In this document: positions 1 through 64,000 of the stretch, in pieces | Numbering within the stretch: position 1 is the first letter of the stretch | Layout of the letters: each line of letters starts with the position of its first letter | Notes under the pieces: generated by a model | What the model was told of the DNA's origin: nothing | The model's input: only the letters and a program-made list of their open reading frames with translations | Database searches by the model: none | Assembly (NCBI GenBank): GCA_000004985.1 | Contig: GG738900.1 | Length of the DNA stretch: 64,000 nt | Reading direction: 5' to 3' (one strand) | Origin: Naegleria gruberi | Taxonomy: Eukaryota | Position numbers and translations under genes: made by a program

Positions 1-2
1 CA

Positions 3-26869: not shown

Positions 26870-29239
26870 TTATTTATGCTTGATGTAGTATTGATCACTT
26901 TCATCGAATGCTTTGAAAATTGTATGTAATGGTTGGCCGGTAACAAGGAGGGAAGAAAGTCCATTTTCATTTCTTTCAGCTTGGAAAGCTTCATGTTGAT
27001 ACATTAAAATATTGAAAACTGGTGTGTTGCAGTTGGATTGAACTGGTGAGGCTCTCATGAATTGATTGTAAATAGCCAACATGTTCATTACAACTTCAAC
27101 ATTTCCACCAACAATTCCAGGATTAAGAAGCATACTATTTAGAGGTGTTTGATGTTTAGAAAGGGTATTAAGTGGATAAGGAGCTGATTTGTTATAGTAG
27201 AATGATCCATTGACTTCATCAATAGTGATGGAGCATTGAGCAAGCTTTTGTTGAGCCCACTTGGATGAACCAATAGTGGTTGGCTCTGAACCAAAGAAGA
27301 GCTTGTCAGTACTTTCACATACATCACCATCACATTCATCAAAGGTAGAAAGATATTCGAAAGGATTCTTATTAAACTTGATATCAAATAGATCAGTCAT
27401 TATAACTCTCTTTGGTAAAAGACTGAGGCCTTTAGTTGATTCTCTTTGAGCTTGAAGAAGGAAGTTTTCATAAATGAAGAATCTCTCATCATTGGTTGAT
27501 CTCTCACCCAATTGAACGAGTTCAAATCTTACATTATATGAAGTTAACTTGTTGAAACCACACTTGGTGTAAAGTTTGGCATCGTCATAGAAAACCACAG
27601 CTCTAAGATTATGTTTGTGAACCGATTCGTACCATTCTCTCATTGGCTCAAAACAAGAGTCACCATATTGTTCATCTCTTTCTGGATGACCCTTTGTAAC
27701 AAAGTAAGTGGTAAAAATAACATCGTCTGTTACTTGATTATTGGAAAAGTGATAGTATTTCAAGTACCAATCAACAAATTTACGAACACCATCTTCGAGT
27801 TTGGTCTTTGGTTGGAAATTGAGTAATTCTTGACTGTGTGTAATGTCAGCAAAGGTAATGGTCATATCAGTTGGTGGTTTCTTTACATGATTAATCTTGG
27901 CCTTCTTATCGAGAGCCTTTTCAATATACTTGATCATATCAGTAACCTTCTCAGGAGTATGGTTACCTAAATTGAAAACATCATGAACAGCTCTTCCTTC
28001 TTCTCTTTTAACACGATCTCCATAATTCATAGAATTGATAATACCATTAACAATATCATCAATATAGGTAAAATCTCTCATTAACTCTTTTCCTTCGAGA
28101 GTGTAAAGAGTAATTGGCTTACCCTTAACAATTTGATCAACCCAACTGAAAAGAGCCATATCTGGTCTTCCATAAGGGCCATAAACAGTAAAGAATCTCA
28201 ATCCAATAACTGGAATACCGTAAAGGTAGTTATAAGTTTCAGCAAATAATTCTTGGGATATCTTGGAGGCGCTATATACATTGGTAGGTTTGTTAATGTT
28301 CATTTGTTCATGGAATGCAGATGGATCAAATTCTTGAATGTTTCCATAAACGCTTGAACTGGAGGCATAGGCAAAAACTGGAGGATTAGTTTTTTGGTAT
28401 TTAACACTAGTTTCCAACAATTCTATTTGACAGAGAATGTTATTTCTAATGTAGGTTTGGGGATTTTTAAGGGAATATCTTACACCAGCTTGGGCAGCAA
28501 GATGGAGAACATGTGTAAAGGTGTATTTCTCGAAAATTTCACTCAAAATTGAAGTATTGCATACATCTCCCTCAATGACTTGAAAATCAATGAATGGCTT
28601 AATGTCTGCTTCTTCTTTTCTCAAAATTGTACTCGCTTGTTCAATCAAATTTTGATTGATTTCTCTAACAGTCTTTTCCAATTGTTTCTTTCTCATGTAT
28701 TTCAAGTCAGTTGAGTAGTAGTCATTGAAATTATCAAGACCAATCATGACACTACGTTCAACATTATTCAATGCCAAATCAATTTGTTCAATATTGCCCT
28801 TTGTTTCATTGACAAGAGTTGCCATAAAATTGTTCCAATAGGCAAACTCTTCCTTTGCAAGCTTTTCAGCAAGATGAAAGCCAATAAATCCAGCACTTCC
28901 AGTAACTAGAACTTTACGAGAATGAGAAGATTGGGAAAGACCAACCGTATTATCAGATTCTCCTGATGATGTCATATTGGTGGAAGCACTTCCACTAACA
29001 ATAGAACCATCAACAGAAGCAGCAACACTTGCAACAGAAAGTCCGGAAGCAGTATTGCTGTTAGAAGTAGTGGAGGCAACAACTACTTCGGAGTGTGCAT
29101 TACCAGCACACATCATCAAGACAATGGCAAACATCATCATGATTGTCATCATCTTCCATGATGATGAGAACTTTAACAGAATGGTACTCTTAGAGTAATA
29201 ATAGTGTCTATGAGACATTTTACGATATGTAATGAGCAA
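26870..29239 (-). CDS. Secretory-pathway UDP-glucuronate 4-epimerase fused to a C-terminal GT77-like nucleotide-sugar transferase domain
   Basis: The tracked ORF is 789 aa. The likely start is the ATG near 29152 (MMTIMMMFAIVLMMCAGNAHS|EVV, signal-peptide-like). Epimerase: KVLVTGSAGFIGFHLAEKLAK, VMIGLDNFNDYYS, YASSSSVYG, YSASK. RFFTVYGPYGRPDMALFSW is the GAE/CapI hallmark (compare RFFTVYGPWGRPDMAYF). C-terminal ~300 aa: …VFYDDAKLY…RVIMTDLFDIKFNKNPFEY…, a DxD-type nucleotide-diphospho-sugar-transferase-like fold. A 96-nt in-frame element at 28752..28847 sits between the GxxGxxG helix and strand beta2; see findings. Confidence 0.8.
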   Translation of the reverse strand: MLITYRKMSHRHYYYSKSTILLKFSSSWKMMTIMMMFAIVLMMCAGNAHSEVVVASTTSNSNTASGLSVASVAASVDGSIVSGSASTNMTSSGESDNTVGLSQSSHSRKVLVTGSAGFIGFHLAEKLAKEEFAYWNNFMATLVNETKGNIEQIDLALNNVERSVMIGLDNFNDYYSTDLKYMRKKQLEKTVREINQNLIEQASTILRKEEADIKPFIDFQVIEGDVCNTSILSEIFEKYTFTHVLHLAAQAGVRYSLKNPQTYIRNNILCQIELLETSVKYQKTNPPVFAYASSSSVYGNIQEFDPSAFHEQMNINKPTNVYSASKISQELFAETYNYLYGIPVIGLRFFTVYGPYGRPDMALFSWVDQIVKGKPITLYTLEGKELMRDFTYIDDIVNGIINSMNYGDRVKREEGRAVHDVFNLGNHTPEKVTDMIKYIEKALDKKAKINHVKKPPTDMTITFADITHSQELLNFQPKTKLEDGVRKFVDWYLKYYHFSNNQVTDDVIFTTYFVTKGHPERDEQYGDSCFEPMREWYESVHKHNLRAVVFYDDAKLYTKCGFNKLTSYNVRFELVQLGERSTNDERFFIYENFLLQAQRESTKGLSLLPKRVIMTDLFDIKFNKNPFEYLSTFDECDGDVCESTDKLFFGSEPTTIGSSKWAQQKLAQCSITIDEVNGSFYYNKSAPYPLNTLSKHQTPLNSMLLNPGIVGGNVEVVMNMLAIYNQFMRASPVQSNCNTPVFNILMYQHEAFQAERNENGLSSLLVTGQPLHTIFKAFDESDQYYIKHK

Positions 29240-47383: not shown

Positions 47384-49234
47384 TTAGAATCTGCTGACAT
47401 CTCTGCCAAAGATTGCTGTTTTCACCCAATCAGAAGCGAGTGAAAATCTATTCTTCCAAGAAACTTGCTTGGAAAGATAGGCAGCTCTGTATAAATAGAA
47501 AGCTTGCCAACTGGTTACGGTAGTTCCAGAAAGGTCAGCAACTGCATGGTTGTTGCCAATGTAGGCGAATGAGCCCAAATTCTTATAAGTAAATGGTGGT
47601 ACATAGGTAATTCCCTTTTCAATGTCATTAAGGCAATTGCCAAGATAACTTCCTTGCTTGGAGGCGACTTGTGCTGTTTGTGGTAGTGGAGCATAGTATT
47701 CATTGTCAATTCTTTGGATGAGAGATTTGAATTCATCTTTGGAAAGAACATTATCTCCATTCACATCTGCTTGTGTGAAAAGCTTTTTGAGTTTTTGATT
47801 GATTGTGGCAAAGTTTGGATATTCCTTTTCTTTTGCCTTGATTAATGATTCCATTTCTGTAAATGATATAACTCCATCCTTATTGATATCAGCTTGTTCA
47901 AAGAATGACTCGTATTTTTGAACAAGTTTAGGTTGGTCAATTTTAGAACAATCTCCAATAGCATAAACATTATTCAATCCAACAACTTGTAAATGAGCAT
48001 CAACAACGAGTGATTTTTCATTCTTTTGCTTGTAAATATTTTCTGCCAATTTTTTAACAAGTGGAACTTGAGCAACACCAGTCGTCCAGATACAAACTCC
48101 AAAAGGTAATGATACTGGTTCACTCTTCTTTTGTTGATCCTTAAATACGACAACTAGATCATTTTCTCTCACTTCCACAACTCTTGCATTAGTTTTCAAA
48201 TCAACATTATTGAATATAAATTCCTTTTCGCACATTTCACTAATTTTACAATCATAGGTATTTAAAATATGATCTGAGCTATGAATAACTGTAATCTTGA
48301 GTTTTTCAACAATATCCTTTGGAAATAATTTGGAAATATCTTCCTTTACAAAGTCAACCAAGTAACCAAGTGTCTCAATTCCAGCATGTCCTCCTCCCAC
48401 AACTTGAAGAAGTCAATAAAATGTAAAGAAATGTAGAAACTTACCAACTACACTGAGTGCCTTTTGTCTTTCTTCATCTGTCAAGTTTGGCATGCAAGCT
48501 GATTCCAAAACATCCAAAAGTTTCTCTCTAATCTTGACTGCGTGTTCTGGTTGTTTCATTGGAACACTGTATTGATCAACACCTTTCACACCAAAACTAT
48601 TTGGTTGACTTCCAACAGCAATTACCAACTTATCATATTTCAATTCAAAATCATTAGCAATATCACTTCCATTCTGATGATGAATTACATAATTTGAAAT
48701 ATCCTTGCATTTGATCACACCCCTCTCATAATCAACATCATAACATTCAGCTTCATAATACTCAATCAGAGATTTATCCTTTCTTACTCTATTAATCACA
48801 CTTCTGATTGGTTCTGTAATACTTTGCATGGAAACAGTTCCTGCAAGAGCTGCTGGAAGCATTGGAGTAAAAAGGAAATAATTCCTAGGACTAACTACAT
48901 AAACATCATACAAATCCAAATCAATGGATTGAATCAGACCCACTGATGCCCAACCACTTCCAAGAATTACTAATTTCTTCTTTGGTTGATAGGGAGAGTT
49001 ATTAGTTGGTGATGATTTTTCTTCTGCTTGAATAATTAGATTATTAGCTAATACTGATCGGTGATGTTGATCAACATCATGATTGTCTTCATTGGGAGCA
49101 AATTTAACTTGATTGTTGTTGTTGTTGAGAAGGAAATAGGCAGAGGTTGTGATGGTTGCTGCTGCTGTGGTTAGGAGTAACTTTTTCTTGTTGATTATTG
49201 CCTTGGCTGAGAGTATTCTGAAGAGACTCTGCAT
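47384..49234 (-). CDS. Type-II (alternative, rotenone-insensitive) NADH dehydrogenase with EF-hand pair and mitochondrial presequence, 2 exons
   Basis: Exons (minus strand) 48445..49234 and 47384..48402. The 42-nt intron runs GTAAGT…TTCAAG and falls inside the second dinucleotide-binding motif (…RQKALSVV|VVGGGHAGIETLGYLVDF). First Rossmann: KKKLVILGSGWASVGL…SPRNYFLFTPMLPAAL. EF hands: DINKDGVISFTE and DVNGDNVLSKDE. The N-terminus MQSLFRILSAKAIINKKKLLL is presequence-like. Confidence 0.85.
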
Positions 49235-50654: not shown

Positions 50655-50735
50655 CGCAGACTGCAGGATTCGAACCTACGAAGGTTTCCCCAACAGATTT
50701 CAAGTCTGTCGCCTTAACCACTCGGCCAAGTCTGC
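50655..50735 (-). tRNA. tRNA-Ser (anticodon TGA), class II with long variable arm
   Basis: Reverse complement: GCAGACT TG GCCG AGTGGTTAA GGCG ACAGA CTTGAAA TCTGT TGGGGAAACCTTCGTAGG TTCGAATCC TGCAGTCTGC G. Anticodon loop CU-UGA-AA. The long extra arm is typical of tRNA-Ser. No intron. Confidence 0.85.
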
Positions 50736-53118: not shown

Positions 53119-54294
53119 ATGAAAGTTAGTACTCGCTCAATTGAAATGTGTGAAAAAGTTGTGAAAAAACCTGCAAAAAAAATGGCATCGCTCGTTTTTA
53201 CCAACGACCCTGCTTCCTATCAACAACAACAGCAACAACAATCGACCACCACCACTCTTAAAACAACACTCTCGGAAGGACCAACAACTACCACTTCCTA
53301 TTATGGAAATAATCACAATCTTGAATCAGTAGCGTTGGATGATGATGAACAAAACAATCATTATTCTTCTTCAAATGATCCGATATATGGTCTTAGAGCA
53401 TCATCAATGAATGGAATTAGAATTGGAAAATATATTTGTTGTCCATCGAGTAGTTCATTCATGAGTTTCATTTCAGTGTTGATATTTGCATTGTGGATTA
53501 TTCCGTACATGTTGATTATTGCCTTGTTGATTGTTTGTGGAATTGATACAAAGGTGACGACTGCAATTTCATATTGTGGAACACATCAACATCATTTGAG
53601 ACCAATGTTTGTGGCTACGTTTTGTATTAATGGAGTTTTGTTTTCGATTGTGTTTGTGATAAGGGCTTTGGTTTTGTATGTGAAATGGTTTGGATGGAGA
53701 GAGACCAATAATAATTATAATACCTCTAGATGGAGAAGATTATTAACATGTCAGTTCAGTAATATTAAATTCCCTGGAAGAAGAGAGTTTTTGTCGATTC
53801 CTTTTTGGTTGATCATTGTGCAATTGATTCCAGGAGTTTCTGCTAATATTTTACTTATTATTATGGCTATATATCCTGATGAAAAAGCAACGAGAACAGT
53901 GCATTTTGTCACAGCTTTTTTGGGATTGTTATTCTTGATTATTTATACAGGTTTCTCGTTTATTATTCAAGCATGGCGATTGTTCAGAGCTTGTAGAGGA
54001 AAAACTCAACCATTTCATTTTATAAGACATGTTAATTCATTGACTATTAACAAGAGAAAAATGTACATTTTATCTGTTTCTGGCTTTTCAATTTCAATGA
54101 TTTACCATTTTAGTTGCATGATTGGAGCGATTATTTGTATTCCAATTTATTTAACCAAATTTATTCCAATTGCTGAATGGATTGCAGTGTTATTGATATT
54201 GTTAGGAATGGTACCATTAATGTTTGATAACATGCTGTCAATTAGGGAAGGTCCTGCAACATTGGATGAAAATCCGCAAGCGTTATTAAGATAA
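53119..54294 (+). CDS. Hypothetical multi-pass membrane protein, 391 aa, with poly-Q/T-rich N-terminus
   Basis: ATG at 53119. About 110 aa of low complexity (QQQQQQQSTTTT) followed by 6–7 predicted TM helices. Family not recognised. Confidence 0.6.
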   Translation: MKVSTRSIEMCEKVVKKPAKKMASLVFTNDPASYQQQQQQQSTTTTLKTTLSEGPTTTTSYYGNNHNLESVALDDDEQNNHYSSSNDPIYGLRASSMNGIRIGKYICCPSSSSFMSFISVLIFALWIIPYMLIIALLIVCGIDTKVTTAISYCGTHQHHLRPMFVATFCINGVLFSIVFVIRALVLYVKWFGWRETNNNYNTSRWRRLLTCQFSNIKFPGRREFLSIPFWLIIVQLIPGVSANILLIIMAIYPDEKATRTVHFVTAFLGLLFLIIYTGFSFIIQAWRLFRACRGKTQPFHFIRHVNSLTINKRKMYILSVSGFSISMIYHFSCMIGAIICIPIYLTKFIPIAEWIAVLLILLGMVPLMFDNMLSIREGPATLDENPQALLR

Positions 54295-54309
54295 AAAGTT
54301 ACTGTTTAT

Positions 54310-57300
54310 TTACTTTCTTTTGAGGAAGGATGGTTTACCAAAGAATGAAGACTTAATGCTTTGAAGTTCACCTACCGATTGTAAATCATTTCCTTCAGTC
54401 TCATTATTTTGTTCAGGATCTGTCTTCTTATTTCTAGTAAAGAATGATTTCTTTGTATCCAAACGAGGTATAGCAGCTCTAGTATTTTGTACTTCTTCAA
54501 CTACAACATAAACATCTTCTGCTTCATCATCATCTTGTGCAACTTGTTGTGTGCTAATGTTTGAGGAAACAACATGCTGAGTGGAACCGGTTACAACTGT
54601 GCTACTAGAGCTAGAAGAATGGTTAGTAACAGTAGAGCTACTGGTTTGCTTTGTGACAATATTTGAACTACTGATGGCTTGTTGAGAACTTGTTATCACT
54701 GTTTGTCCGGATACTGCTGATGAGTTTGAATTTTCTGTTGTGGTGATAGTGGAAGAGCTTTGCTTTGATCCAAAGGCCCCTTTCACTGCTTCTCTCATGG
54801 AAGTCTTGCTTTTCATTCCCTTCAATGCTTGCCATCCAAATGGCATTCTCTTCTTTTCAACTCCAGTTTCTTCAACTACAACATAAACATCTTCTGCTTC
54901 ATCATCTTCTTGTGCTACTTGTTGACCATTACTACTGGACACAACTTGTTGACTTGAGGATTGACTAACCATTTTACCTGATTCACTTGCTTCGATAGAT
55001 TTGCTACTATTTACAACAGTCTTTTCTTGTGAAGAAAATCTAGTGGATTTAGATTTTTCAGGCTTTCTCTTTGATGATGCTTCTTGGGATTCAACAACAA
55101 TATAAACATCTTCTCCTTCATCAACCTCTTCAGAAGCACCAGATTGTTGAGTTGAGGTCTTTTGAGCTACCATATTAGATGTCATATTTATAGAAGCAGC
55201 TGATCTACTGCTGATCATAGAGTTGGTAGATTGATAGGTACTTAATTGATCTTCTTGGGTGTAATCAGATGATCTACCTTCCTTTGTTATCAATGCATTG
55301 GCAGCATCTCTCATTGACATCTTATTCTTCTTCATATCTTTCAATGCTTGCCATGCTGAAGATTTCTTTCTCTTCTCCTTTGCTTCTGACTCTACAACAA
55401 CATAAACATCCTCACCTTCATCAACTTCTTCCTTCTTGTTAACAACACTACCCACGTTTCGTTCAAACATACCACTACTCAAGGTTTGCAACATCATATC
55501 TTCGTTCTTTTCCTCTTCGAAAGACATTGGTGGTTTACTTCTGTTCACAACAGTATTCTCTTCAAAGGAACTTTCATTGTTGGAAGAAGAGTTTGGTAAA
55601 GTCTTACTTGATTTGCTAGATTTAGACTTTTCAGGCTTTCTCTTTGATGATGCTTCTTGAGATTCAACAACAATATAAACATCTTCTCCTTCATCAACCT
55701 CTTCAGAAGCACCAGATTGTTGAGTTGAGGTCTTTTGAGCTGCCATATTCAATTCGCTGGATTGTTGATTTGAGGATTTTTGAAGTTTTCTACTACCAGA
55801 AGTAGAGTTAGATTGGTGGACTTGTTCTTCATCAAGAGATACTGGAGGCTTACTTCTGTTAACAACTGATTTTTCTTGAGAAGATTTTGTGGATGATTTT
55901 CCGTTCTTTGACTTCTTGTTTGATCTCTTCTTTGATTTTTCTTCAGATTCCACAACAACAAAAACATCTTCTCCTTCATCTTCTTCAACAGAATTGGTCA
56001 CATTTTGTTGCATCGATTGTGCTTGCATTCCAGATAAGTTACTTGTTGGTATCTTTTGCTTGCTTTCTTTTGGTTTGCTGACTGGTTTCATCTTCTTTTC
56101 TTCAGATTCTACAACTACGAATACATCCTCTCCTTCGTCCTTGCTTTCTGTTGCTGTAGCCATTATTGATTCTCTGTGAGATAATGGCGAGCTCCTAACT
56201 GCTGGTTGGGTTGGTTCTTCATCAAATGACAATGGAGGCTTGCTTCTGTTGACAACTGAATTTTCACTAGAATCTCCAATATATTTGGAAGAAACCTTAA
56301 TTGGTTTGTTTTGCATGATATCTTCTTGAACTGGAGGAGCGTATTTCTTGGCTTGTTCTGATTCTGCAACAATATAAACATCTTCATCAACCTCTTCAGA
56401 AGCAGCAGATTTGTTAGACACTTGTGGTCTTGTTTCCTCAGAAGTGAATTTCTTATTTACAACACTTTCTTCGAACTTATTAGCAGCAAACATGTCACCA
56501 TACAAAGATTGTAACATCTTCTTATTTTCTTCCTCTTGTACGACATTTAGTGGAGAGGCCTTTACTATCTTTTCTTCCTCAGTATAAACTTGTCCTCTAA
56601 CAGTTTGAGAGTTAACACTTGATGGTCTGCTACTGGTTGTTGAATTCAATTCCACATCTCTAGTTTCCTTGGATGCTGACTGAACTCTAGTTCTTCTTGT
56701 TGGGAGTCTTGGACTACCGTGAGATTGAGGTCTTGATGAGCTTTGGTTTGATGTAACTCTTGGAGCACTCTTATTGTTCAAAACAACGTTTTGCAATGAT
56801 TTTTCCTCTTCCTCTTCTTCATCAATATAAACTTGGCCTTGAACTGTTTGAGATTTAGGAGCAACATAGGATCTTGGTTTGGAAGGTTTAACTTCTTCAG
56901 GTGTTGTTTCCACAACTTGCTTCTTTTCCTTTTCTGAGAATAATTCACCTCTCAAGGTTTGAGCCTTATTACTTTGTAAAACTCTTGGCTGAACAAATTC
57001 AGGCGTCTTACTATGATTAACAACTTCCTTTTCTTCAGTTTGCTTGGTTTCACTAAATACATCTCCTCTCATGGTTTGAGATTTGTTACTTGGTAAAACT
57101 CTTGGACTCTTTGGTTGAGCAACTTCTAGGGCTCTACTATGATTAACCACTTCCTTTTCTTCCTTAGAGTTTGCATAAAGTTCTCCCTTCAAGGTTTCCG
57201 TATTTGCACTTGAAATATGCTTCTTTTCTGGAACTTTACCGATTGGCTTACTAGATACATCACTACCGGTAATCAAATTGGCATTCTCATCGACAGTAGT

Positions 57301-60300
57301 AACACTCTTCTCTCCAAATAAATCACCCCTAATGGTTTGAGCCTTATTACTTTGTAAAACTCTTGGACTCTTTGTTTGAGCAAATTCTGGGGCTCTACTA
57401 TGATTAACAACTTCCTTTTCTTCAGTTTGATTGGTTTCACTAAATACATCTCCTCTCATGGTTTGAGATTTAGTTTCAGTGGAAGTTCTTGGAATCTTTA
57501 CTTGTGTTGGAGCAAATTCTGGGGCTCTATGGTTAACCACTTCCTTTTCTTCAGTATTCTTGTCCTTGAGTATTTGAGAAGAAACCTTAATAGGCTTGTT
57601 GAATAACAAGTCATCCATAGTCTTTTCTTCGTTTTGTTCAGTCTTTCTAAATATGCTACTTTCTTCCATCTCTTCACATTCATCTTCAGTAGATCCCATC
57701 GAGAATGGATTTAATGATGATAATTTGGCAGGTTTTGGTTTTGTGCCCCGTTGTACAAAATCTTTTTCATCTACCAATTCTACACTACTTTCCTCTTCAT
57801 GTTCATCCTTAACACGTCCGTTGGCATATGCAAACTCGTTAACAAGACCTTCTTTGACAAGTTTTACAGAGTTGCTACTTCTTCTCAAATCGTCAGTTTC
57901 TTCAACCAAAGATTCGTCTTCATCTTCAGTGACACTATGTTGCATTGAAACATCTCTTTCTCCTTGAATAATATTTGATTTCTTTGATAGCCTTGGTGTG
58001 AATGATTGTACTACGTTTGGCTGGACTTCAGTTTCTTCAGTATAATTTTGTTTGGCGTAAGGATTGATTGATTGCATTGTCATCTTATTCTTCTTTTCTT
58101 CAAATGTTTCTTCATCATCCTTCAAATCCCAGATAGAACCATTTGAATTCTTCACATTCACTTCCTTTTCTTCCTTTTCTTCTGTTTCTTCGTATTGATT
58201 TTCATTCAAGTCAACAAGTGTACCTCCAAGAAGTGGAAGAACCTTATTCTTTCCACCAGTGGTTTGTTGTACAAGTTTGGCATCTCCTGGAACAATTTGA
58301 ACCTTTCTCATAGATCTACCGGTCTTCTTAAGAGGTCTATAAGCAACAAATGGTTCTTCAACCTTAAGACCTTGCTTGTTCATAACTTCCATTTCAACTT
58401 CAGTTTCCTCGTTATATTCTTCTGCAGCTTGAGTCTTAATAGCTATTTGTTGAATCTTCATTTCTTCTTCCTCATCATATGAGATATCAGATTCAGTTGA
58501 TCCTCCAACAACAACTTCTTCTTTATGAACACAGCAACAACAACAACAGAATCCTGCAAATCTTCTTCTATTTCTACACAAGATAATGCAAGAAATAAGA
58601 CAAGTTAGAGAGAAACCACAAATAATAACAGCAGCAGCTCCTAAAGCAGCAACATAGGTGTATGAATAATAGATAACAGTGCTTGTTTGCAGCACAAATA
58701 CGTTGGTGAATTGCTTGCAACGACATTTGGCAAAGGTATCATTTCTAGAAATTGGAGCTACAAGAGAACACTCAGTTCTGATCAAAGAAGATCCATCCTC
58801 AAAATCACCACAAGTATAGGTTTCGGAAACAGTTGTAAAGTCAAGGACATCATGAATAATTTCTGTTTCGACCTTACTAAAGTTAAGTGGAATTGTATAG
58901 ATAATGTCATTCTCGTTAATTGGAGTGGCAACATCAATAAATTCAACAGAAACAATTGGTGAAATCAAGTTAGCCAAAGTATTTGCGTTGGAGAAACTAC
59001 TGGCTGATGTAATCTTTTTAGACTGTTTCAATTGCGAGTTAAGTGAGTAAATATCTTCAGAAACGCACAAAACATAAATAAATGGTTTCTTAACAAGGTA
59101 TGAAAGTTTTGACACTTCAAATTCAAAGAAACCTGACAAGACATCAATACTGGTTTGTGTAATTGGTTCTTGGACATATGTTGGATAATCGTTCAATGTA
59201 CTTTTACCAATTACGACATGGAAGAATGGACCCTGATATCCCTTCTTAAGTCTACCAGCAGACATTCCTCTGGCCATCAAGTAAGAGGTCATCTTCAATG
59301 TCAACAATAGTCTTCTAGAGTTGACTTTTTGATCAATAAGGTATTGTTTGTCAACTACATAGTAATATGCAGAACGAATGCAACCATCTAACATGATATT
59401 CATTCCTGAGGTAAGCTTCAAGCTAGGATCAGAAAGTGAGAATGTAAGGAAAGTGTTCAAAGTATATAAAGATCTATCTACAGTCACACTAGTAAGATAA
59501 GGATAATTCAATAACATTGAATCAACAGCAAAGGAAAGCAAAGATAAGTATTCAACGCTTACAGTTCCTGTTGCATTGGCAATATTGTTCATATCATCGA
59601 GTGCGTGAATCTTTGATAATTGGATATTATTAAAATCTTTGACTTCAATATCACAATATTGGCCTATCCATTCATCCTTACACTTGCAAGAACCAGCAAT
59701 ATCAACACCATTTATACATTCCAAAGAACTAGAGGAACTAGAATGTTGAATAGTATCAGAAATTGTTTCTTCCAACATTACTGAGCCTGTTCTGGAAGAT
59801 GAAGAAGATTGGTAGATACTCTTACTGTATTCTCCCTCCAAAATATAGCTTTGACCTGCATCTGCCCAAGCGATGATTGTTGTTTGGACTTCTTCAACTT
59901 GTTGAACAAATGGTTTATCAATGGTAATGTTAGTGTAAGTAGTTGTTGAAGCACCTGTAAGAGTATTAATTACTTCAAAGTAACATGTTAAAATACTTCC
60001 AGTAAATGGAGCTGGAAGTTTTGAAGAATAAACCTCGCCAAGACTATATAATGGAAGCTTGGCACCTGATCTATCATCAATAAATCCGTATACATAGTCG
60101 ATATGATTTGCATCATCTTTACAATTTGTACAGTAGAATTGGAAATCTGTTTGTTGGGCAATACCTTCAGGAGGATTGATTGTACACAAACATGGTTTTG
60201 GAGAGGTTGCAACTTCGAAAGTATATGTAGTAGATGTTGAGGCTCCAGTGTTTGGATCATAAGCAGTGATAACAACAGTATTATTTGTTCCTTCTTCAAA

Positions 60301-63300
60301 TTCGCTTGTATCAATGTTGATTGTTGATGAATCGACAATACCTTTGTTCTTTGAATTGATTGTCAAGTTGGTTCTTGTAAGTGAAGGATCACTGGAGGTA
60401 TATGTTTGAATAGTAACTGTTTGACCTTGGATAACATATGTCTTTGGTTCAACATCCACAATATTAACAATAGGAGGTACGTTTACAAAGTAAACTACTG
60501 TTGTTGCAGAAATAGATCTTCCATCAGACTTTTCAATTGTCAAAGTAAGAGTAATATAGGATGGAACAGTTTCATTAAATATCTTGGATTCAATTGTAAA
60601 CTCAGTAGATCTATCTTTAGAAATATTGAAAAGGAATTCCAATAATGTTTGGTTACTATTTTCCAAACAAGTCCAAGTCCATTGTTCAGTAATACCTGTG
60701 TGGTATGTTGATTCAGGGTCAGAGTATTCAACATCAATTATAGTATAATTCTTTCTAGCTTCTCTTTGAATAATAGATAAAACCATATCTATTGGTTTTG
60801 TTATTAATGTTACGATACTTGTTGTGTTCAATTGAGGATAGGATGGATAGAAGGCTGTAACTAAGAAAGTATATGTTTGATAGCCAAAGGTGGAAATAGA
60901 AGGAATGTAAAGATTTCCAAAGGTATCGACTTGATAATCTATTATCGGTCCTGTAAGTTGTTCCCATTTAACAGCAGATTTTTGTGATTTACAAGATGAT
61001 TCTGATACAGTCTTCTTAAAATAGACAGGGAATTGAGAGGCATCCTTTTCTTGGTGAGTGATTGGAACATAAATTGATGGAATTGGCTTTGATGCCTTAG
61101 TAAATACATTAGAATAAACAATAGAACTATTCTTTCTAGCAAATGTACTCTCAACTTGGAGAGAAACTAGGTATGAACCAGGTAAAAGACTAGAATTTTG
61201 CAATTTGATGAAAGGGCTGTTTGCAAAATTGGAATAAAAAACTTGATAGGTTGTAGAATCAAGTAAATTCCAATAATAATGCAGTGATTTTCCATCCTCT
61301 GAGTGACTCATAGATCCATCAATAGTAATATCATCACATGAACTGTAAAATTCATCCAAAGTAGAAATAACAGCAGTTGGCCAAATATTGGAAGGCATGG
61401 CAACATCTATTTGAACATAATAATTTTGTTGAGTAACGTGATTGATTCTATCAATAACAAGAGTGTTGATATTGATTGTATCAATTTCTGGTTGCAAGGT
61501 ATAATCCATAGAACCAAAGCTAATAATGAACAAATTGTTGGTTCTATCAATAAATTGACATTTAAGGTTTGATAGTGTACCAAACAAGTTTCTATTAATA
61601 TCAGTCTCACTCAATAGATAACTGCAAGGTATATCAATCTTTGTGTATGAGTCAGGAACATAGAGATTAAAGATGAGTCCTCTAAAATCTGAGGAGAAAA
61701 CAGCAGGTCCTACAACCTTTGTAGCACACAACTCACCATAATAATCTTGGTCACACTTGTTACATGTAAATCCTGTCCAAAATCCTTGGGAGTAATCTGT
61801 GTAACATTCACATGCACCACTGATTAAACATTCACCATGATTAGTACAATTGATTTCCTTTTTACAAGTACCATACATTATCATAATTTCACAATTAGTA
61901 CCATTATAACCAGTCTTACAATTACAAGTGTCAATATCTACACACTTTCCTTTTCCTGAGCAAACAGATTTTACGTTTCTTGAAACACCGAAACAATCAT
62001 ATTCTTGACATGTTGAGCCGTAATAAGTATCAACACAAGAACAATTATTATAATCTATACATTGACCTCTTCTGGAGCATACACTATTATTGTTTGATCT
62101 GACATTTCCACATGTAGTCAAGGCACAATCATTACCAAAGTAGTGTGGTCTACATGAACAATTATTATAGCTTGCACACACTCCTCTTCCTGAGCAAACA
62201 GATGGGTCAGTGTTGTTACCTTCTAAACAAGTATAGAATTCACAGTTAACTCCATAGTATCCAGTATCACATGTGCAGTTAGAATACTCAGAACATTTAC
62301 CTCTTCCAGAACAAACAGAGTTGTTAAGGTGTTCCACGTTGTTACAAGTGTAGAATTCACATGTAGGGCCATAATAACCTTCATCACAAGAGCAGTTATT
62401 AAAATCAATACATTGTCCTCTTGACGAGCAAACTGTTGTTTCGTTGGATTGTACATTACCGCAACTAGTTAATTGACAGTCAACACCCCAATAATTGGTG
62501 AAGCAGGTACAATTATTATAACTGGAGCATTCACCTCTTGCGGAGCAGGAGTTTGATTCAGTGTGATTGACATAATTGCAGGTGAAGAATTGACAATCAT
62601 TTCCAAAGTAACCTTCATCACATTCACATTTTTCATAGCTTGTACATTTACCATGCGTTGAACAAACAGATGAATTCAAATGTTCAATTCCATTACAATC
62701 ATAGAACTCACAGACAGGTCCATAAAAATCACTCTTACATTCGCATATATTGAAATCTGAGCAATTACCTCTCGATGTACAAACAGTGGAATCATTGGAT
62801 TGAACAGAACCACATGTGGTCAATTCACATGTATCACCAAAGTAGTTATCTCTGCATGAACAATTGTTGAAAGAGGAACATTCACCTCTTGATGAACAAA
62901 CTGTTGTTTCCGTGTGGTTAACACCATTACAAGTAAAGTATTGACAATCATTTCCAAAGTAACCTTCTTTGCATATACATACTTCAGGAATTGTACATTT
63001 ACCATACGTTGAACAAACAGATGAATTCAAATGTTCAATTCCATTACAATCATAGAACTCACAGACAGGTCCATAAAAATCACTCTTACATTCGCATATA
63101 TTGAAATCTGAACAATTACCTCTCGATGTACAAACTTTAGAATTATTAGATTGAACAGAACCACATGTGGTCAATTCACAAGTAGATCCAAAATAGTTAT
63201 CTCTGCATGAACAATTGTTATAGCTTGAACATTCACCTCTTGAAGAGCAAACTGTTGATTCAGTGTGATTGACACTATTGCAGGTGAAGAATTGACAATC

Positions 63301-64000
63301 ATTTCCAAAGTAACCTTCATCACATTCACATTTTTCATAGCTTGTACATTTACCGTGCGTTGAACAAACAGATGAATTCAAATGTTCAATTCCATTACAA
63401 TTAAAGTATTCACAATTATCACCATAATATCCTTCATCGCATGCACAAGAATCAAAATCTGCACATTGTCCCTTTCCAGAGCATACATTGGTATCGTTGG
63501 AAAGAACTCCATGGCAAGAGGTTACATCACATGCAAGGTCCATATAATTTTCTCTACATTTACAATCACCAAAGTTTGTACAATTACCTCTACCTGAACA
63601 TACAAGAGGTTCTCCCTCAGTAATATTGAAGCAGCTATAATGTTCGCAAATATCACCAAAGTAGCCATATTTACAAACGCAAGTGTTGTAATCAATACAC
63701 TTTCCTTTTCCAGAACATACATAAGGGTTATTTGAGTTGACAGTACCACATGTTGTCAATTCACATGTATCACCAAAGTAGTTGTCTCTGCATGAACAAT
63801 TGTTGAAGGAGGAACATTCACCTCTTGATGAACAAACGGATGAATTGGTACTGTTAATGCCACCACAAGTGAAGAATTGGCATTCACCTCCAAAGTACCC
63901 ATTTTCGCAATCACAAACATCATAATCTACACAAATACCCTTGCTATAACAAACGCTTGAGTTTGTGTTAAGAACACCAAAACATTGTACCAATTCACAC
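54310..64000 (-). CDS. Giant single-pass surface protein (>3227 aa, 5'-partial): tenascin-type EGF-like repeat array, beta-rich ectodomain, TM helix, repetitive acidic cytoplasmic tail
   Basis: One uninterrupted minus-strand ORF from the window edge to TAA at 54310-12. Its N-terminus and start lie beyond nt 64000. At least 22 tandem ~31–33-aa Cys repeats (CxxxGxCxxxxxCxCxxGYxGxxCExxxC, many with NxS/T sequons) span about 61745–64000. About 1000 aa of beta-rich, Cys-poor ectodomain follow. The TM segment YVAALGAAAVIICGFSLTCLISCIILC, followed by RNRRRFAGFCCCCCC, sits near 58560–58660. The ~1400-aa tail carries repeated units such as …EEVDEGEDVY(I/V)VVESQE… and TEEKEVVNHSRAPEFAQTKSPRVLQSNKAQTIRGDLF. 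Confidence 0.85.
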   Translation of the reverse strand, partial: CELVQCFGVLNTNSSVCYSKGICVDYDVCDCENGYFGGECQFFTCGGINSTNSSVCSSRGECSSFNNCSCRDNYFGDTCELTTCGTVNSNNPYVCSGKGKCIDYNTCVCKYGYFGDICEHYSCFNITEGEPLVCSGRGNCTNFGDCKCRENYMDLACDVTSCHGVLSNDTNVCSGKGQCADFDSCACDEGYYGDNCEYFNCNGIEHLNSSVCSTHGKCTSYEKCECDEGYFGNDCQFFTCNSVNHTESTVCSSRGECSSYNNCSCRDNYFGSTCELTTCGSVQSNNSKVCTSRGNCSDFNICECKSDFYGPVCEFYDCNGIEHLNSSVCSTYGKCTIPEVCICKEGYFGNDCQYFTCNGVNHTETTVCSSRGECSSFNNCSCRDNYFGDTCELTTCGSVQSNDSTVCTSRGNCSDFNICECKSDFYGPVCEFYDCNGIEHLNSSVCSTHGKCTSYEKCECDEGYFGNDCQFFTCNYVNHTESNSCSARGECSSYNNCTCFTNYWGVDCQLTSCGNVQSNETTVCSSRGQCIDFNNCSCDEGYYGPTCEFYTCNNVEHLNNSVCSGRGKCSEYSNCTCDTGYYGVNCEFYTCLEGNNTDPSVCSGRGVCASYNNCSCRPHYFGNDCALTTCGNVRSNNNSVCSRRGQCIDYNNCSCVDTYYGSTCQEYDCFGVSRNVKSVCSGKGKCVDIDTCNCKTGYNGTNCEIMIMYGTCKKEINCTNHGECLISGACECYTDYSQGFWTGFTCNKCDQDYYGELCATKVVGPAVFSSDFRGLIFNLYVPDSYTKIDIPCSYLLSETDINRNLFGTLSNLKCQFIDRTNNLFIISFGSMDYTLQPEIDTININTLVIDRINHVTQQNYYVQIDVAMPSNIWPTAVISTLDEFYSSCDDITIDGSMSHSEDGKSLHYYWNLLDSTTYQVFYSNFANSPFIKLQNSSLLPGSYLVSLQVESTFARKNSSIVYSNVFTKASKPIPSIYVPITHQEKDASQFPVYFKKTVSESSCKSQKSAVKWEQLTGPIIDYQVDTFGNLYIPSISTFGYQTYTFLVTAFYPSYPQLNTTSIVTLITKPIDMVLSIIQREARKNYTIIDVEYSDPESTYHTGITEQWTWTCLENSNQTLLEFLFNISKDRSTEFTIESKIFNETVPSYITLTLTIEKSDGRSISATTVVYFVNVPPIVNIVDVEPKTYVIQGQTVTIQTYTSSDPSLTRTNLTINSKNKGIVDSSTINIDTSEFEEGTNNTVVITAYDPNTGASTSTTYTFEVATSPKPCLCTINPPEGIAQQTDFQFYCTNCKDDANHIDYVYGFIDDRSGAKLPLYSLGEVYSSKLPAPFTGSILTCYFEVINTLTGASTTTYTNITIDKPFVQQVEEVQTTIIAWADAGQSYILEGEYSKSIYQSSSSSRTGSVMLEETISDTIQHSSSSSSLECINGVDIAGSCKCKDEWIGQYCDIEVKDFNNIQLSKIHALDDMNNIANATGTVSVEYLSLLSFAVDSMLLNYPYLTSVTVDRSLYTLNTFLTFSLSDPSLKLTSGMNIMLDGCIRSAYYYVVDKQYLIDQKVNSRRLLLTLKMTSYLMARGMSAGRLKKGYQGPFFHVVIGKSTLNDYPTYVQEPITQTSIDVLSGFFEFEVSKLSYLVKKPFIYVLCVSEDIYSLNSQLKQSKKITSASSFSNANTLANLISPIVSVEFIDVATPINENDIIYTIPLNFSKVETEIIHDVLDFTTVSETYTCGDFEDGSSLIRTECSLVAPISRNDTFAKCRCKQFTNVFVLQTSTVIYYSYTYVAALGAAAVIICGFSLTCLISCIILCRNRRRFAGFCCCCCCVHKEEVVVGGSTESDISYDEEEEMKIQQIAIKTQAAEEYNEETEVEMEVMNKQGLKVEEPFVAYRPLKKTGRSMRKVQIVPGDAKLVQQTTGGKNKVLPLLGGTLVDLNENQYEETEEKEEKEVNVKNSNGSIWDLKDDEETFEEKKNKMTMQSINPYAKQNYTEETEVQPNVVQSFTPRLSKKSNIIQGERDVSMQHSVTEDEDESLVEETDDLRRSSNSVKLVKEGLVNEFAYANGRVKDEHEEESSVELVDEKDFVQRGTKPKPAKLSSLNPFSMGSTEDECEEMEESSIFRKTEQNEEKTMDDLLFNKPIKVSSQILKDKNTEEKEVVNHRAPEFAPTQVKIPRTSTETKSQTMRGDVFSETNQTEEKEVVNHSRAPEFAQTKSPRVLQSNKAQTIRGDLFGEKSVTTVDENANLITGSDVSSKPIGKVPEKKHISSANTETLKGELYANSKEEKEVVNHSRALEVAQPKSPRVLPSNKSQTMRGDVFSETKQTEEKEVVNHSKTPEFVQPRVLQSNKAQTLRGELFSEKEKKQVVETTPEEVKPSKPRSYVAPKSQTVQGQVYIDEEEEEEKSLQNVVLNNKSAPRVTSNQSSSRPQSHGSPRLPTRRTRVQSASKETRDVELNSTTSSRPSSVNSQTVRGQVYTEEEKIVKASPLNVVQEEENKKMLQSLYGDMFAANKFEESVVNKKFTSEETRPQVSNKSAASEEVDEDVYIVAESEQAKKYAPPVQEDIMQNKPIKVSSKYIGDSSENSVVNRSKPPLSFDEEPTQPAVRSSPLSHRESIMATATESKDEGEDVFVVVESEEKKMKPVSKPKESKQKIPTSNLSGMQAQSMQQNVTNSVEEDEGEDVFVVVESEEKSKKRSNKKSKNGKSSTKSSQEKSVVNRSKPPVSLDEEQVHQSNSTSGSRKLQKSSNQQSSELNMAAQKTSTQQSGASEEVDEGEDVYIVVESQEASSKRKPEKSKSSKSSKTLPNSSSNNESSFEENTVVNRSKPPMSFEEEKNEDMMLQTLSSGMFERNVGSVVNKKEEVDEGEDVYVVVESEAKEKRKKSSAWQALKDMKKNKMSMRDAANALITKEGRSSDYTQEDQLSTYQSTNSMISSRSAASINMTSNMVAQKTSTQQSGASEEVDEGEDVYIVVESQEASSKRKPEKSKSTRFSSQEKTVVNSSKSIEASESGKMVSQSSSQQVVSSSNGQQVAQEDDEAEDVYVVVEETGVEKKRMPFGWQALKGMKSKTSMREAVKGAFGSKQSSSTITTTENSNSSAVSGQTVITSSQQAISSSNIVTKQTSSSTVTNHSSSSSSTVVTGSTQHVVSSNISTQQVAQDDDEAEDVYVVVEEVQNTRAAIPRLDTKKSFFTRNKKTDPEQNNETEGNDLQSVGELQSIKSSFFGKPSFLKRK
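54313..58540. repeat. Coding tandem/interspersed repeats in the tail of the giant gene
   Basis: A ~117-nt block at 55051–55168 is ≥97% identical to 55625–55741. A core ttcttcaactacaacataaacatcttctgcttcatcatc occurs at 54489, 54870, 55390 and 56110. A ~90-nt unit, aactcttggactctttg…ctactatgattaacaacttccttttcttcagtttg, recurs at ~57040, ~57100, ~57360 and ~57480. Confidence 0.8.
61745..64000. repeat. Tandem array of ~96-nt coding repeats (EGF-like modules), with several near-identical DNA copies
   Basis: For example, 62640–62760 and 62995–63110 are nearly identical. The string gaacattcacctcttgatgaacaaac recurs several times. Confidence 0.8.

Follow-up and report, generated by a model that had tools for sequence, protein, structure and literature searches.

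The minus strand of the 64,000-nt stretch of Naegleria gruberi DNA analysed here (the window) carries a real and intact gene that encodes a very large surface receptor with a single membrane pass. With a probability of roughly 0.7, its product is a type-I plasma-membrane glycoprotein of an EGF-REJ-GAIN family with a disordered tail that would be multivalent. From the outside inwards the protein shows at least 19 EGF modules, a PKD/FN3-like stalk of ~600 aa with a REJ domain, a further EGF unit, a predicted GAIN domain, one TM helix, a poly-Cys run and the tail (Table 1). Recent in-frame duplications of DNA enlarged both the EGF array and the tail. The EGF array is unusually long, and the repeat-built tail of ~1,400 residues is without counterpart in any known relative.

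A single ORF for a type-I membrane protein

One uninterrupted ORF of 3,229 codons plus stop (9.69 kb) runs to the window edge, where it is still open; given the base composition, a stop-free run of this length would arise by chance at ~1e-104. A first-pass annotation of the same DNA had described a single giant intronless ORF open at the edge, with no strand given. The single ORF was confirmed, and the absence of introns holds for the part within the window but cannot be asserted beyond it. The protein was not found in either protein library searched. Searched by tblastn against the rest of the window, the stalk, the tail and the EGF array gave no second copy, and over 50-64 kb Rfam returned nothing but an unrelated tRNA. 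A neighbouring ORF at 26870-29239 is the N. gruberi NAD-dependent epimerase (100% identity), with an N. fowleri orthologue at 67%.

A hydropathy scan of the protein revealed one TM helix, and no other segment had a mean hydropathy above 1.6. Because the EGF array lies N-terminal to this sole strong hydrophobic segment, which is followed by RNRRR (positive-inside), we assigned a type-I topology. This assignment, together with 43 N-glycosylation sequons in the ectodomain, fits the first-pass placement of the EGF array outside and the repeat tail inside, and makes its reading of a surface receptor of the adhesion type a reasonable one. Recent duplications were indeed found in the EGF array and in the tail, as had been claimed for both ends. 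What that annotation overlooked was the centre of the protein, ~1,050 aa of non-repetitive sequence that defines the family; "rapidly evolving" therefore applies to the repeat number and the tail but not to this conserved REJ-GAIN core.

Table 1. Coordinates of the ORF and its features (all on the minus strand; nucleotide positions are those of the window)
Feature	Residues (aa)	Nucleotides	Basis or remarks
Whole ORF		54310..63999	TAA stop 54310-54312; N-terminus and signal peptide beyond the window edge
EGF array, tenascin/teneurin-type, extracellular	1-707	61879..63999	Pfam matches, regex and period analysis
Three-module super-repeat, youngest part of the EGF array		62509..63401	TRF: 351 nt, 2.5 copies, 86%; families D1-D3
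Laminin-type EGF-like unit, Cys-rich, at the array-to-stalk joint	708-761	61717..61878	Kept in paralogue P0001 (alignment)
All-β stalk, ~six PKD/FN3-like β-sandwich domains	762-1363	59911..61716	Includes Pfam REJ match at aa ~1031-1368
Isolated EGF-like unit between REJ stalk and GAIN helices	1427-1449	59653..59721	Sequence; weak matches to integrin-β EGF
GAIN domain (predicted)	~1453-1779	58663..59643	Helical subdomain of 5 helices, then β-sandwich
GPS-like motif	1730-1771	58687..58812	Cys 1730, 1744, 1759, 1761 family-invariant; CRCKQF↓TNVFVLQ
TM helix, only one	1782-1808	58576..58656	Hydropathy maximum 2.63; RNRRR directly after
Cytoplasmic tail, 1,421 aa	1809-3229	54313..58575	S/E/K-rich, low hydropathy
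Juxtamembrane CCCCCC	1818-1823	58531..58548	Sequence
IWDL motif (GSIWDLKDD)	1956-1959	58123..58134	Common to C-terminal ends of P0004/P0005 tails
Tail repeat family 1: EEKEVVNHS(R/K)xPEF … SNK(A/S)QTxRG(D/E)(V/L)F units		56929..57549	Families D6, D7, D10
Tail repeat family 2: acidic core [DE]x[GA]EDV[Y/F][V/I]VVE[S/E], eight copies		54485..56394	Families D4, D5, D9; codon-level table
Acidic cores 1-4		54485-54528, 54860-54903, 55079-55122, 55379-55422	
Acidic cores 5-8		55652-55695, 55937-55980, 56096-56139, 56351-56394	
Youngest tail duplication, 131 nt		55046..55176 and 55619-55749	Family D8; 98% identical, 573 nt apart

The EGF array

Employing regular expressions and period analysis, we resolved the array into 18 complete modules of 39 aa (117 nt), all of which fit the pattern C-x10-C-x5-C-x5-C-x-C-x8-C, and the end of one more cut by the window edge. 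With two further EGF-like units outside the array, the protein has ~21 EGF-like units in all, in place of the 22 or more modules of ~32 aa counted previously. The array passed the Pfam gathering thresholds for EGF_2 (202.6 bits, cut-off 22.1), EGF_TEN (185.2, cut-off 65) and EGF_Teneurin (120.7, cut-off 24.3), and it carries 29 N-glycosylation sequons.

The near-identical DNA copies of ~120 nt reported earlier were borne out. Modules 6 and 12 (63283-63399 and 62581-62697), spaced 702 nt apart, are the same at all but 1 of 117 nt, and the identity matrix gives 95% for modules 8 and 11. Among five paralogue sequences compared in full (P0004 was left out), the uniform 39-aa array is longest here.

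The REJ stalk and the GAIN domain

The stalk matched the REJ profile PF02010 with 58.5 bits (cut-off 25; E=6.2e-16) over profile positions 44-420 of 452. The PKD1/REJ family sensu Gunaratne (2007) is defined by its REJ domain, which by one published account comprises ~600 residues (PMC1934368). Pfam matches to REJ and EGF were also obtained with the paralogues, and to REJ with the N. fowleri homologue.

Searched against PDB by sequence only, the profile of the core gave a weak match to a PKD domain of KIAA0319L and a borderline match to the latrophilin GPS, so that a fold comparison was needed. Two independent structure searches with an AF2 model (pLDDT 67.8, from an 8-sequence alignment) agreed on a GAIN fold, which comprises ~320 residues with a helical subdomain A and a twisted β-sandwich subdomain B (Araç 2012). 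At this moderate model confidence, a GAIN fold is supported for aa ~1453-1779, and the best structural matches of the model were uncleaved GAIN domains such as BAI3.

No match to Pfam GPS was found in the protein. Between REJ and TM, and ending ~10 residues before the latter, there is a GPS-like motif that aligns to the latrophilin-3 GPS CSCNHLTNFAVLM with E=0.034. The spacing of its four invariant Cys is GPS-like; three of them align to latrophilin-3. In GPS motifs, four Cys form two disulphides around the last β-strands, and such bonds would be putative here. Where autoproteolytic GAIN domains have the triad H-L↓T/S/C, the sequence is Q-F↓T, with Gln in the place equivalent to the catalytic His. 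None of eight close family members has His at the -2 position (Q/K/R/S/T in close paralogues), and canonical HLT was found only in the distant match P0097. With no general-base His in any close family member, the GAIN domain is probably not self-cleaving.

A family of N. gruberi paralogues

When 1.84 billion representatives were searched with a profile, 387 matches were returned, 22 of them below 1e-30, and the top ones were almost all from N. gruberi. The protein belongs to a family of heterolobosean EGF-REJ-GAIN receptors with ~17 N. gruberi paralogues at ~33-45% identity. These include the NAEGRDRAFT "predicted proteins" P0001, P0002 (76139), P0003 (75960), P0004 (51207), P0005 (53311), P0006 (71188) and P0007 (71256); an alignment with P0001 (1,291 aa) that reaches from the last EGF to the TM shows 43% identity over 1,158 aa. 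More distant matches came from N. lovaniensis, N. fowleri ("PKD/REJ-like domain-containing protein"), Willaertia and Percolomonas; for the two Naegleria species among these, the homologues seen were single and distant only.

The paralogues share with the present protein the ~1,050-aa core (laminin-type EGF, PKD/REJ stalk, EGF, GAIN and a single TM, often with poly-Cys), a GAIN region at 33-45% identity that contains the motif C.C..[LF][TG]NVF, and N-terminal EGF arrays of varying number, with the same 39-aa module type in P0005. Unlike it, they are without EDV[Y/F]VVVE, VVN(H/R)S and QTxRGxxF repeats. In the literature, we found no paper that treats the GAIN domain alongside Naegleria, Discoba or Heterolobosea, and nothing relevant to the family came up for Naegleria and REJ, polycystin or surface proteins of the EGF type.

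A cytoplasmic tail built from short repeats

The tail is a Ser/Glu/Lys-rich polyampholyte with 236 D+E and 193 K+R. Its net charge is -43 over ~1,400 aa, and it is not simply acidic, as the earlier description of a long acidic repeat tail had it. In a hydropathy/charge calculation its mean hydropathy was 0.388, versus 0.424 at the order/disorder boundary, and the tail is predicted to be intrinsically disordered. A homology search with the tail only (5.8 billion proteins; 8,000 candidates) found no homologue, and the tail motifs were absent from the 168 family proteins in which we looked for them. A Pfam match to the sorting-nexin N-terminal domain (17.8 bits) fell below the cut-off of 28 and was disregarded.

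Next to the membrane, CCCCCC is likely a palmitoylation cluster; poly-Cys runs also occur in the family proteins P0006, P0011 and P0105, at the corresponding position in P0006 (the one checked). The IWDL motif marks the end of an ancestral short tail, about 150-165 aa past the TM. Beyond IWDL lies a lineage-specific extension of ~1,270 aa with three families of short repeats. Counted from the GPS motif, the tail measures 1,470 aa here versus 115-236 aa in all seven close paralogues.

Two tail repeat families were found beyond those listed by the first-pass annotation. Copies of family 1 extend over 113 nt at 88% and 100 nt at 91% identity; based on regular expressions, the QTxRGxx[FY] core occurs 6 times, and VVN-containing units 10 times across the tail. 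In family 2, the acidic cores are interleaved with three E(N/K)xVVNRSKPPxS(F/L)(D/E)EE units; a Tyr- and VVV-bearing peptide of the tail motif reads EEVDEGEDVYVVVESEE. These cores had been noted as ~45-nt units encoding DE(G/A)EDVY(V/I)VVE, and a core of ~44 nt is indeed present in eight copies, but its aromatic position is Tyr in six and Phe in two, the copies being otherwise strictly conserved. Similarly, the near-identical blocks given as 117 nt, at least 97% identical and 574 nt apart proved real, with the exact values those of the 131-nt pair in Table 1. This pair encodes an identical 41-aa block with 3 synonymous and 0 non-synonymous differences, and a 15-aa pair at aa 2621/2674 differs by 7 synonymous and 0 non-synonymous codons, with diverged flanks. 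The acidic-aromatic core is constant at the protein level while codons and flanks diverge; purifying selection at the protein level acts on the tail motifs.

Among known short motifs, FFAT does not fit the acidic cores at positions 4 and 5, the clathrin box is excluded by the lack of a leading Leu, and a strict YxxΦ/AP-2 sorting motif is ruled out by the Phe-bearing copies. Motifs of the LIR type have the consensus [W/F/Y]xx[L/I/V]. In pattern, the acidic core resembles LIR and SIM motifs, with an acidic run followed by [Y/F][V/I]VV, and binding to Atg8 or SUMO is putative.

Possible function and alternative explanations

The best reading of the protein is an adhesion or mechanosensory type-I receptor with many copies of putative short binding motifs in its tail. 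The glycosylated EGF rod would bind an external ligand or surface, and the β-sandwich stalk with GAIN may form a mechanically loaded, membrane-proximal module. The disordered tail could serve as a multivalent scaffold, on which the eight EDV[Y/F][V/I]VVE units and the other repeats would recruit a few cytosolic partners, most likely by β-strand addition of the LIR or SIM type rather than via phosphotyrosine. A more specific version has a slight chance at best: the acidic cores could be Atg8-interacting LIR-type motifs, by which a receptor for prey or substrate directly covers the endocytic or phagocytic membrane it sits in with Atg8. If true, a discoban amoeba would have a multivalent kind of LC3-associated phagocytosis that is encoded in the receptor itself and coupled to a mechanosensor of the non-cleaving GAIN/REJ type, and the REJ-GAIN module would be placed close to the root of eukaryotes.

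The Tyr of each DVYVVVE unit had been proposed as a phosphorylation site for docking, which in a rapidly evolving self-recognition or adhesion receptor would be of the SH2 type. Very recent duplications in the repeat arrays, Tyr in most of the cores and the 5 SH2 domains and 3 PTPs of Naegleria are consistent with this proposal, but group A (conventional) tyrosine kinases and PTB domains are both reported to number 0 in Naegleria (PMC4342544), the two Phe-bearing cores are otherwise perfectly conserved and show synonymous divergence only, old paralogues share the ~1,050-aa core, which is conserved and not fast-evolving, and no feature found points to self-recognition. The Phe in two of eight cores and the lack of conventional tyrosine kinases make obligate phosphotyrosine docking unlikely, and such a receptor as a whole is quite unlikely. 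We also consider it improbable that GAIN acts canonically, with autoproteolysis at F1764↓T1765, an ectodomain shed by force and TNVFVLQ as tethered ligand in the style of adhesion GPCRs or polycystin-1. The modelled GAIN fold, the +1 Thr and -1 Leu/Phe kept in most paralogues and a TNVF(V/I) strand close to TNFAVLM of latrophilin would accord with cleavage; however, neither this protein nor any close paralogue has the -2 His, +1 is Gly in P0006 and P0014, the single TM offers a tethered agonist no 7TM or 11TM bundle in cis, and uncleaved domains were the best structural matches.

Other alternatives concern the gene itself. That the mature receptor does not contain the long tail, because an intron was missed, the 3' end is an alternative one or a downstream ORF is fused, would agree with the short tails of all seven close paralogues and with IWDL only ~150 aa after the TM; also, there is no model of the gene in the protein libraries, hence no independent link of ectodomain and tail. 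We take this to be quite improbable, given 1,421 tail codons in the same frame without a stop in DNA of 35% GC, the purifying selection on the tail motifs, and the ORF stop 15 nt from that of the convergent neighbour, which leaves no room for a separate gene start. During assembly, near-identical units could have been collapsed or expanded, so that the repeat counts were altered and the architecture is misstated, since units 98-99% identical recur at spacings of 573 and 702 nt. Such an artefact is unlikely: the frame is kept throughout, the flanks around the copies have diverged, point substitutions set the copies apart, and only two pairs exceed 95% identity; it would change the copy number, not the nature of the gene. 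A pseudogene or non-coding repeat DNA might explain why no annotated protein was found in the libraries searched, but it is scarcely credible for an intact 9.69-kb ORF with all domains complete, family-invariant Cys kept and motif copies that differ by synonymous changes only.

Significance

The GAIN domain had been traced to Tetrahymena and Dictyostelium (PMC3321182). The present family would add Heterolobosea (Discoba) to the lineages that have the membrane-proximal REJ-GAIN module known from polycystin-1 and adhesion GPCRs, and supports a very early eukaryotic origin of this module and a role independent of 7TM/11TM partners. Because ~17 copies in free-living N. gruberi stand against distant single homologues in N. 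fowleri and N. lovaniensis, the family is a candidate surface-recognition repertoire that differs between harmless and pathogenic species. The gene also shows a route to a cytoplasmic extension of ~1,270 aa made of selected short linear motifs, a natural multivalent array for partner fishing. It is apparently missing from the public protein set and would thus be overlooked by proteome-based surveys.

Comparison with known systems

At the module level only, the EGF array is like those of tenascins and teneurins, with contiguous 6-Cys modules matched by EGF_2, EGF_TEN and EGF_Teneurin, whereas each module here measures 39 aa and its first loop is long and N-glycosylated. The protein is not a tenascin, as it has no fibrinogen or FN3 Pfam match and is membrane-anchored rather than secreted, nor a teneurin, as it shows no type-II topology and no YD shell. 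Adhesion GPCRs (BAI3, latrophilins, CELSR, and CD97/EMR with EGF arrays) differ in their 7TM domain and in the catalytic His that is absent here. With a single TM and no 7TM Pfam match, the protein is not one of them, and without a 7TM domain it cannot signal in cis to a G protein by way of a tethered agonist.

Polycystin-1 (PKD1) and PKD1-like proteins have the same order of PKD-type β-sandwiches, REJ, GAIN/GPS and first TM, and a mechanically extensible ectodomain is supported for polycystin-1 (PMC3677617, PMC3321182). Polycystin-1 has 11 TM, PLAT, a channel-like C-terminal half and HL↓T, in contrast to one TM and QF↓T here; the single hydrophobic segment rules out polycystin-1 proper or a PKD1-like channel. 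While members of the REJ family typically carry PLAT/LH2, Pfam scans of the whole protein and of the tail (E up to 10) gave no PLAT match, and the GPS without His is non-canonical and the disordered tail giant. The SpREJ1-type receptors of sea urchins are likewise heavily glycosylated type-I proteins with EGF, a REJ domain, GPS/GAIN and one TM, but have C-type lectin domains and a single EGF where the present protein has at least 19 EGF modules and no lectin match. By its domain order, the family appears to be the protist counterpart of this single-TM branch of the polycystin-1/REJ family.

Ectodomain, conserved core and membrane anchor

The giant ORF runs on the minus strand from a stop codon at 54310-54312 to nt 63999 (3,229 codons), open at the window edge as the first-pass annotation had claimed; the probability of no stop over this length is ~1e-104 at the window's base composition. 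Residues 1-707 form an array of 6-Cys EGF modules (Pfam EGF_2, 202.6 bits; EGF_TEN, 185.2 bits; EGF_Teneurin, 120.7 bits). The modules recur at an exact 39-aa (117-nt) period and follow the pattern C-x10-C-x5-C-x5-C-x-C-x8-C, and the window holds 18 complete modules and the last residues of one cut by the edge, a lower bound with the N-terminus lying beyond the window; all repeat copy numbers are as read from the assembled sequence. The earlier count (≥22 modules, ~32 aa each) was right about the array, but the modules are larger and slightly fewer. Two more EGF-like units lie outside it. Recent copying at the DNA level, also proposed earlier, was borne out: modules 6 and 12 differ by 1 synonymous nt in 117, modules 8 and 11 are 95% identical, and a 351-nt super-repeat of 3 modules is present in 2.5 copies (86%).

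The gene had been described as two repeat ends. The repeats are there, but the description missed a conserved core: residues ~708-1810 are without repeats and are 43% identical to the N. gruberi 'predicted protein' P0001 across 1,158 aa. The structure model of aa 1364-1780 showed five bundled helices and, after them, a β-sandwich (pLDDT 67.8, pTM 0.66); the models are of moderate confidence and built on shallow alignments (5-8 sequences). Two independent fold searches identified the modelled fold as GAIN, the best seven Foldseek matches being all GAIN (E 7e-11 to 5e-7). The next significant match was 8j07_k3, an unnamed chain of a human respiratory axonemal doublet-microtubule structure (E=1.7e-5).

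In the last strands of GAIN lies a GPS-like motif, C1730…C1744…C1759-R-C1761-K-Q-F-T-N-V-F-V-L-Q, whose four Cys are invariant across eight family members. The profile aligned it to latrophilin-3 CSCNHLTNFAVLM, the best PDB sequence match, with a borderline E=0.034. As defined in the literature (PMC3321182), GAIN spans ~320 residues; its subdomain A has six helices, its subdomain B is a β-sandwich, the GPS contains two disulphides, and cleavage is at HL|T. The features found here fit this definition, with disulphides predicted from the four Cys and five helices in the model, except for the cleavage triad. Self-cleavage is doubtful, because Gln stands here where the catalytic His would be, and no close family member has His at that position.

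The protein has a single TM helix, aa 1782-1808 (hydropathy 2.63; no other segment exceeds 1.6), with RNRRR and then CCCCCC after it. Together with the ectodomain sequons for N-glycosylation (43, with 29 of them within the EGF array), this agrees with the array-outside, tail-inside layout suggested before, in a type I topology. The family members P0006, P0011 and P0105 have poly-Cys runs too, and the juxtamembrane position matches where checked (P0006).

Receptor family

A search of 1.84 billion representative proteins with the core profile returned 387 matches at E≤0.001, 22 with E<1e-30. The best 23 of the 387 were nearly all N. gruberi paralogues, seven of them full-length (P0001-P0007). 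P0001, P0006 and P0007 lie on one N. gruberi contig (348,446 bp), suggesting that family members are clustered locally or were duplicated in tandem. Paralogue N-termini have EGF arrays of variable length and Asn/Thr/Ser-rich spacers, with REJ and the same GPS-like motif further on. In the GAIN region the window protein is 33-45% identical to each paralogue and is thus an old, distinct one; no protein identical to its core or tail was found in the 5.8-billion- or 1.84-billion-sequence libraries, where the neighbouring epimerase was found.

Weaker relatives occur in N. lovaniensis, N. fowleri (UniProt name 'PKD/REJ-like domain-containing protein'), Willaertia magna, Percolomonas and metagenomes. 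In the distant match P0097 the GPS is canonical (CxCxHLT) and ~970 aa follow it, which connects the family with PKD1-like proteins more widely. The C-termini of P0001, P0002, P0003, P0005 and P0007 have in common an xΦDL[L/M/V]D-type motif (EVDLLD, DQDLVDF, RVDLMDE, SDIDLLQ, RIDLLDE), reminiscent of dileucine sorting signals.

Origin and motifs of the cytoplasmic tail

The GPS motif is followed by 1,470 residues in the giant ORF product, as against 115-236 in the paralogues. About 150 residues past the TM stands GSIWDLKDD, with counterparts SGIWDLRED and GIIWDLKEP near the C-termini of P0004 and P0005. Judging from this IWDL(K/R)(E/D) motif, common to the three proteins, the ancestral tail seems to stop at about aa 1975 and the ~1,270 aa beyond it to be a lineage-specific extension. 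No homologue of the extension was found in the 5.8-billion-sequence library, and none of its motifs among 168 family proteins. Mean hydropathy of the tail (0.388) is below the order/disorder boundary (0.424), and that of the ectodomain above it. The tail, previously called acidic, is not plainly so; it is a Ser/Glu/Lys-rich polyampholyte with a net charge of -43 over ~1,400 aa.

The near-identical tail blocks noted earlier (117 nt, ≥97%, 574 nt apart) were recovered as a 131-nt pair at 55046-55176 and 55619-55749 (98% identity, 573 nt spacing). The acidic core family, given as ~45 nt, was found as 8 copies of ~44 nt in which E-D-V-[Y/F]-[V/I]-V-V-E stays essentially unchanged; the one departure is an Ala in place of the last Val. 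Two further repeat families had been missed, EEKEVVNHSxxPEF…QTxRG(D/E)xF and ExxVVNRSKPPxS(F/L)(D/E)EE. At aa 2621 and 2674 the 15-aa core DEGEDVFVVVESEEK is identical in protein with 7 codons differing, all synonymously, between unrelated flanks; a 41-aa duplicated block has 3 codon differences, all synonymous. As cores are kept in the protein despite synonymous divergence and unrelated flanks, the extension is not junk, and the tail contains three or more families of short motifs under selection, 6-10 copies each.

The first-pass annotation placed a Tyr in each acidic core and proposed it as a phospho-docking site. Phe replaces Tyr in 2 of the 8 cores, both otherwise perfectly conserved, which argues that the aromatic ring matters and not the phosphorylatable hydroxyl. 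Naegleria is reported to have 0 group A (conventional) tyrosine kinases, 0 PTB domains and only 5 SH2 domains (PMC4342544), and the proposal is weakened on both counts. The cores consist of an acidic run, an aromatic residue, three β-branched aliphatics and then Glu/Ser. LIRs have the consensus [W/F/Y]xx[L/I/V], e.g. EDYIII of NBR1, and LIR and SIM cores bind via β-strand addition. The acidic cores resemble both and are, as a lead, candidate β-strand-addition motifs.

Genomic neighbourhood

The window is compact, intron-poor nuclear DNA of N. gruberi with about 34% GC. Its other genes are ordinary eukaryotic ones, including a CSC1/OSCA-type channel, WD40, ankyrin and Dpy-30/adenylate kinase proteins and an EF-hand NDH2, whose two ORFs are probably one gene with a short intron. 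The epimerase, whose full identity to the annotated protein assigned the window to N. gruberi, has a ~190-aa N-terminal extension, and its N. fowleri orthologue is 67% identical. The composition of the 2,639-aa ORF suggests a coiled-coil protein of giant size; over 2-10 kb a strong AT skew coincides with it. Downstream of the giant ORF, the narrow stop-to-stop gap leaves room only for 3' UTRs that overlap or are minimal.

Features neighbouring the giant ORF
Feature	Position	Strand	Evidence or remark
ORF, 2,639 aa	1069-8988	+	No Pfam match; extremely rich in Glu/Lys/Leu/Arg (E 19%, K 13%)
NAD-dependent epimerase (UDP-glucuronate 4-epimerase-like), 789 aa	26870-29239	-	100% identical to annotated N. 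gruberi protein
EF-hand type-II NADH dehydrogenase, two adjacent ORFs	47384-48400 + 48413-49234	-	Pyr_redox_2 + NDH2_C + EF-hands
tRNA gene between protein-coding genes	50655-50735	-	Rfam RF00005, 64.3 bits
Convergent neighbour ORF, 391 aa	53119-54294	+	No Pfam match; ends 15 nt from giant ORF stop (54292-54312)

Proposed function and comparison with known systems

The giant ORF product is a predicted type-I receptor, with a long, glycosylated rod of EGF modules outermost, then a stalk of PKD/REJ β-sandwiches, GAIN next to the membrane, one TM, poly-Cys and, inside, a tail predicted to be disordered. The EGF rod would bind a ligand or a surface. PC1 has a mechanically extensible ectodomain (PMC3677617); by analogy, REJ and GAIN may form a force-bearing membrane-proximal module, in which GAIN is probably a structural cap and not a self-cleaving device. 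The poly-Cys cluster may be palmitoylated, and the tail would recruit many copies of a cytosolic partner.

REJ-domain proteins of Naegleria are already labelled as such in databases; a search of the accessible literature found no publication treating GAIN domains in Naegleria or other Discoba. New are, for a discoban family, a predicted GAIN fold whose GPS motif is non-canonical, the large expansion of the family in N. gruberi and, in the giant ORF product, which is apparently missing from the protein set, the array of at least 19 EGF modules and the orphan 1,421-aa motif-array tail.

Tenascin or teneurin membership was rejected, the likeness being confined to the EGF module type. The product has the REJ and GAIN of the PKD1/REJ family but no PLAT match in Pfam, and it has neither the 11 TMs of polycystin-1 proper, nor the 7 TMs of adhesion GPCRs, nor the HL|T of autoproteolytic GAIN domains; it is therefore not polycystin-1 proper, an adhesion GPCR, a tenascin or a teneurin. 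The known system nearest to it in working terms is the branch of the PKD1/REJ family with a single TM: sea-urchin SpREJ1, 8 and 9 each span the membrane once, and SpREJ1 combines an EGF with a REJ domain and a GPS (PMC1934368).
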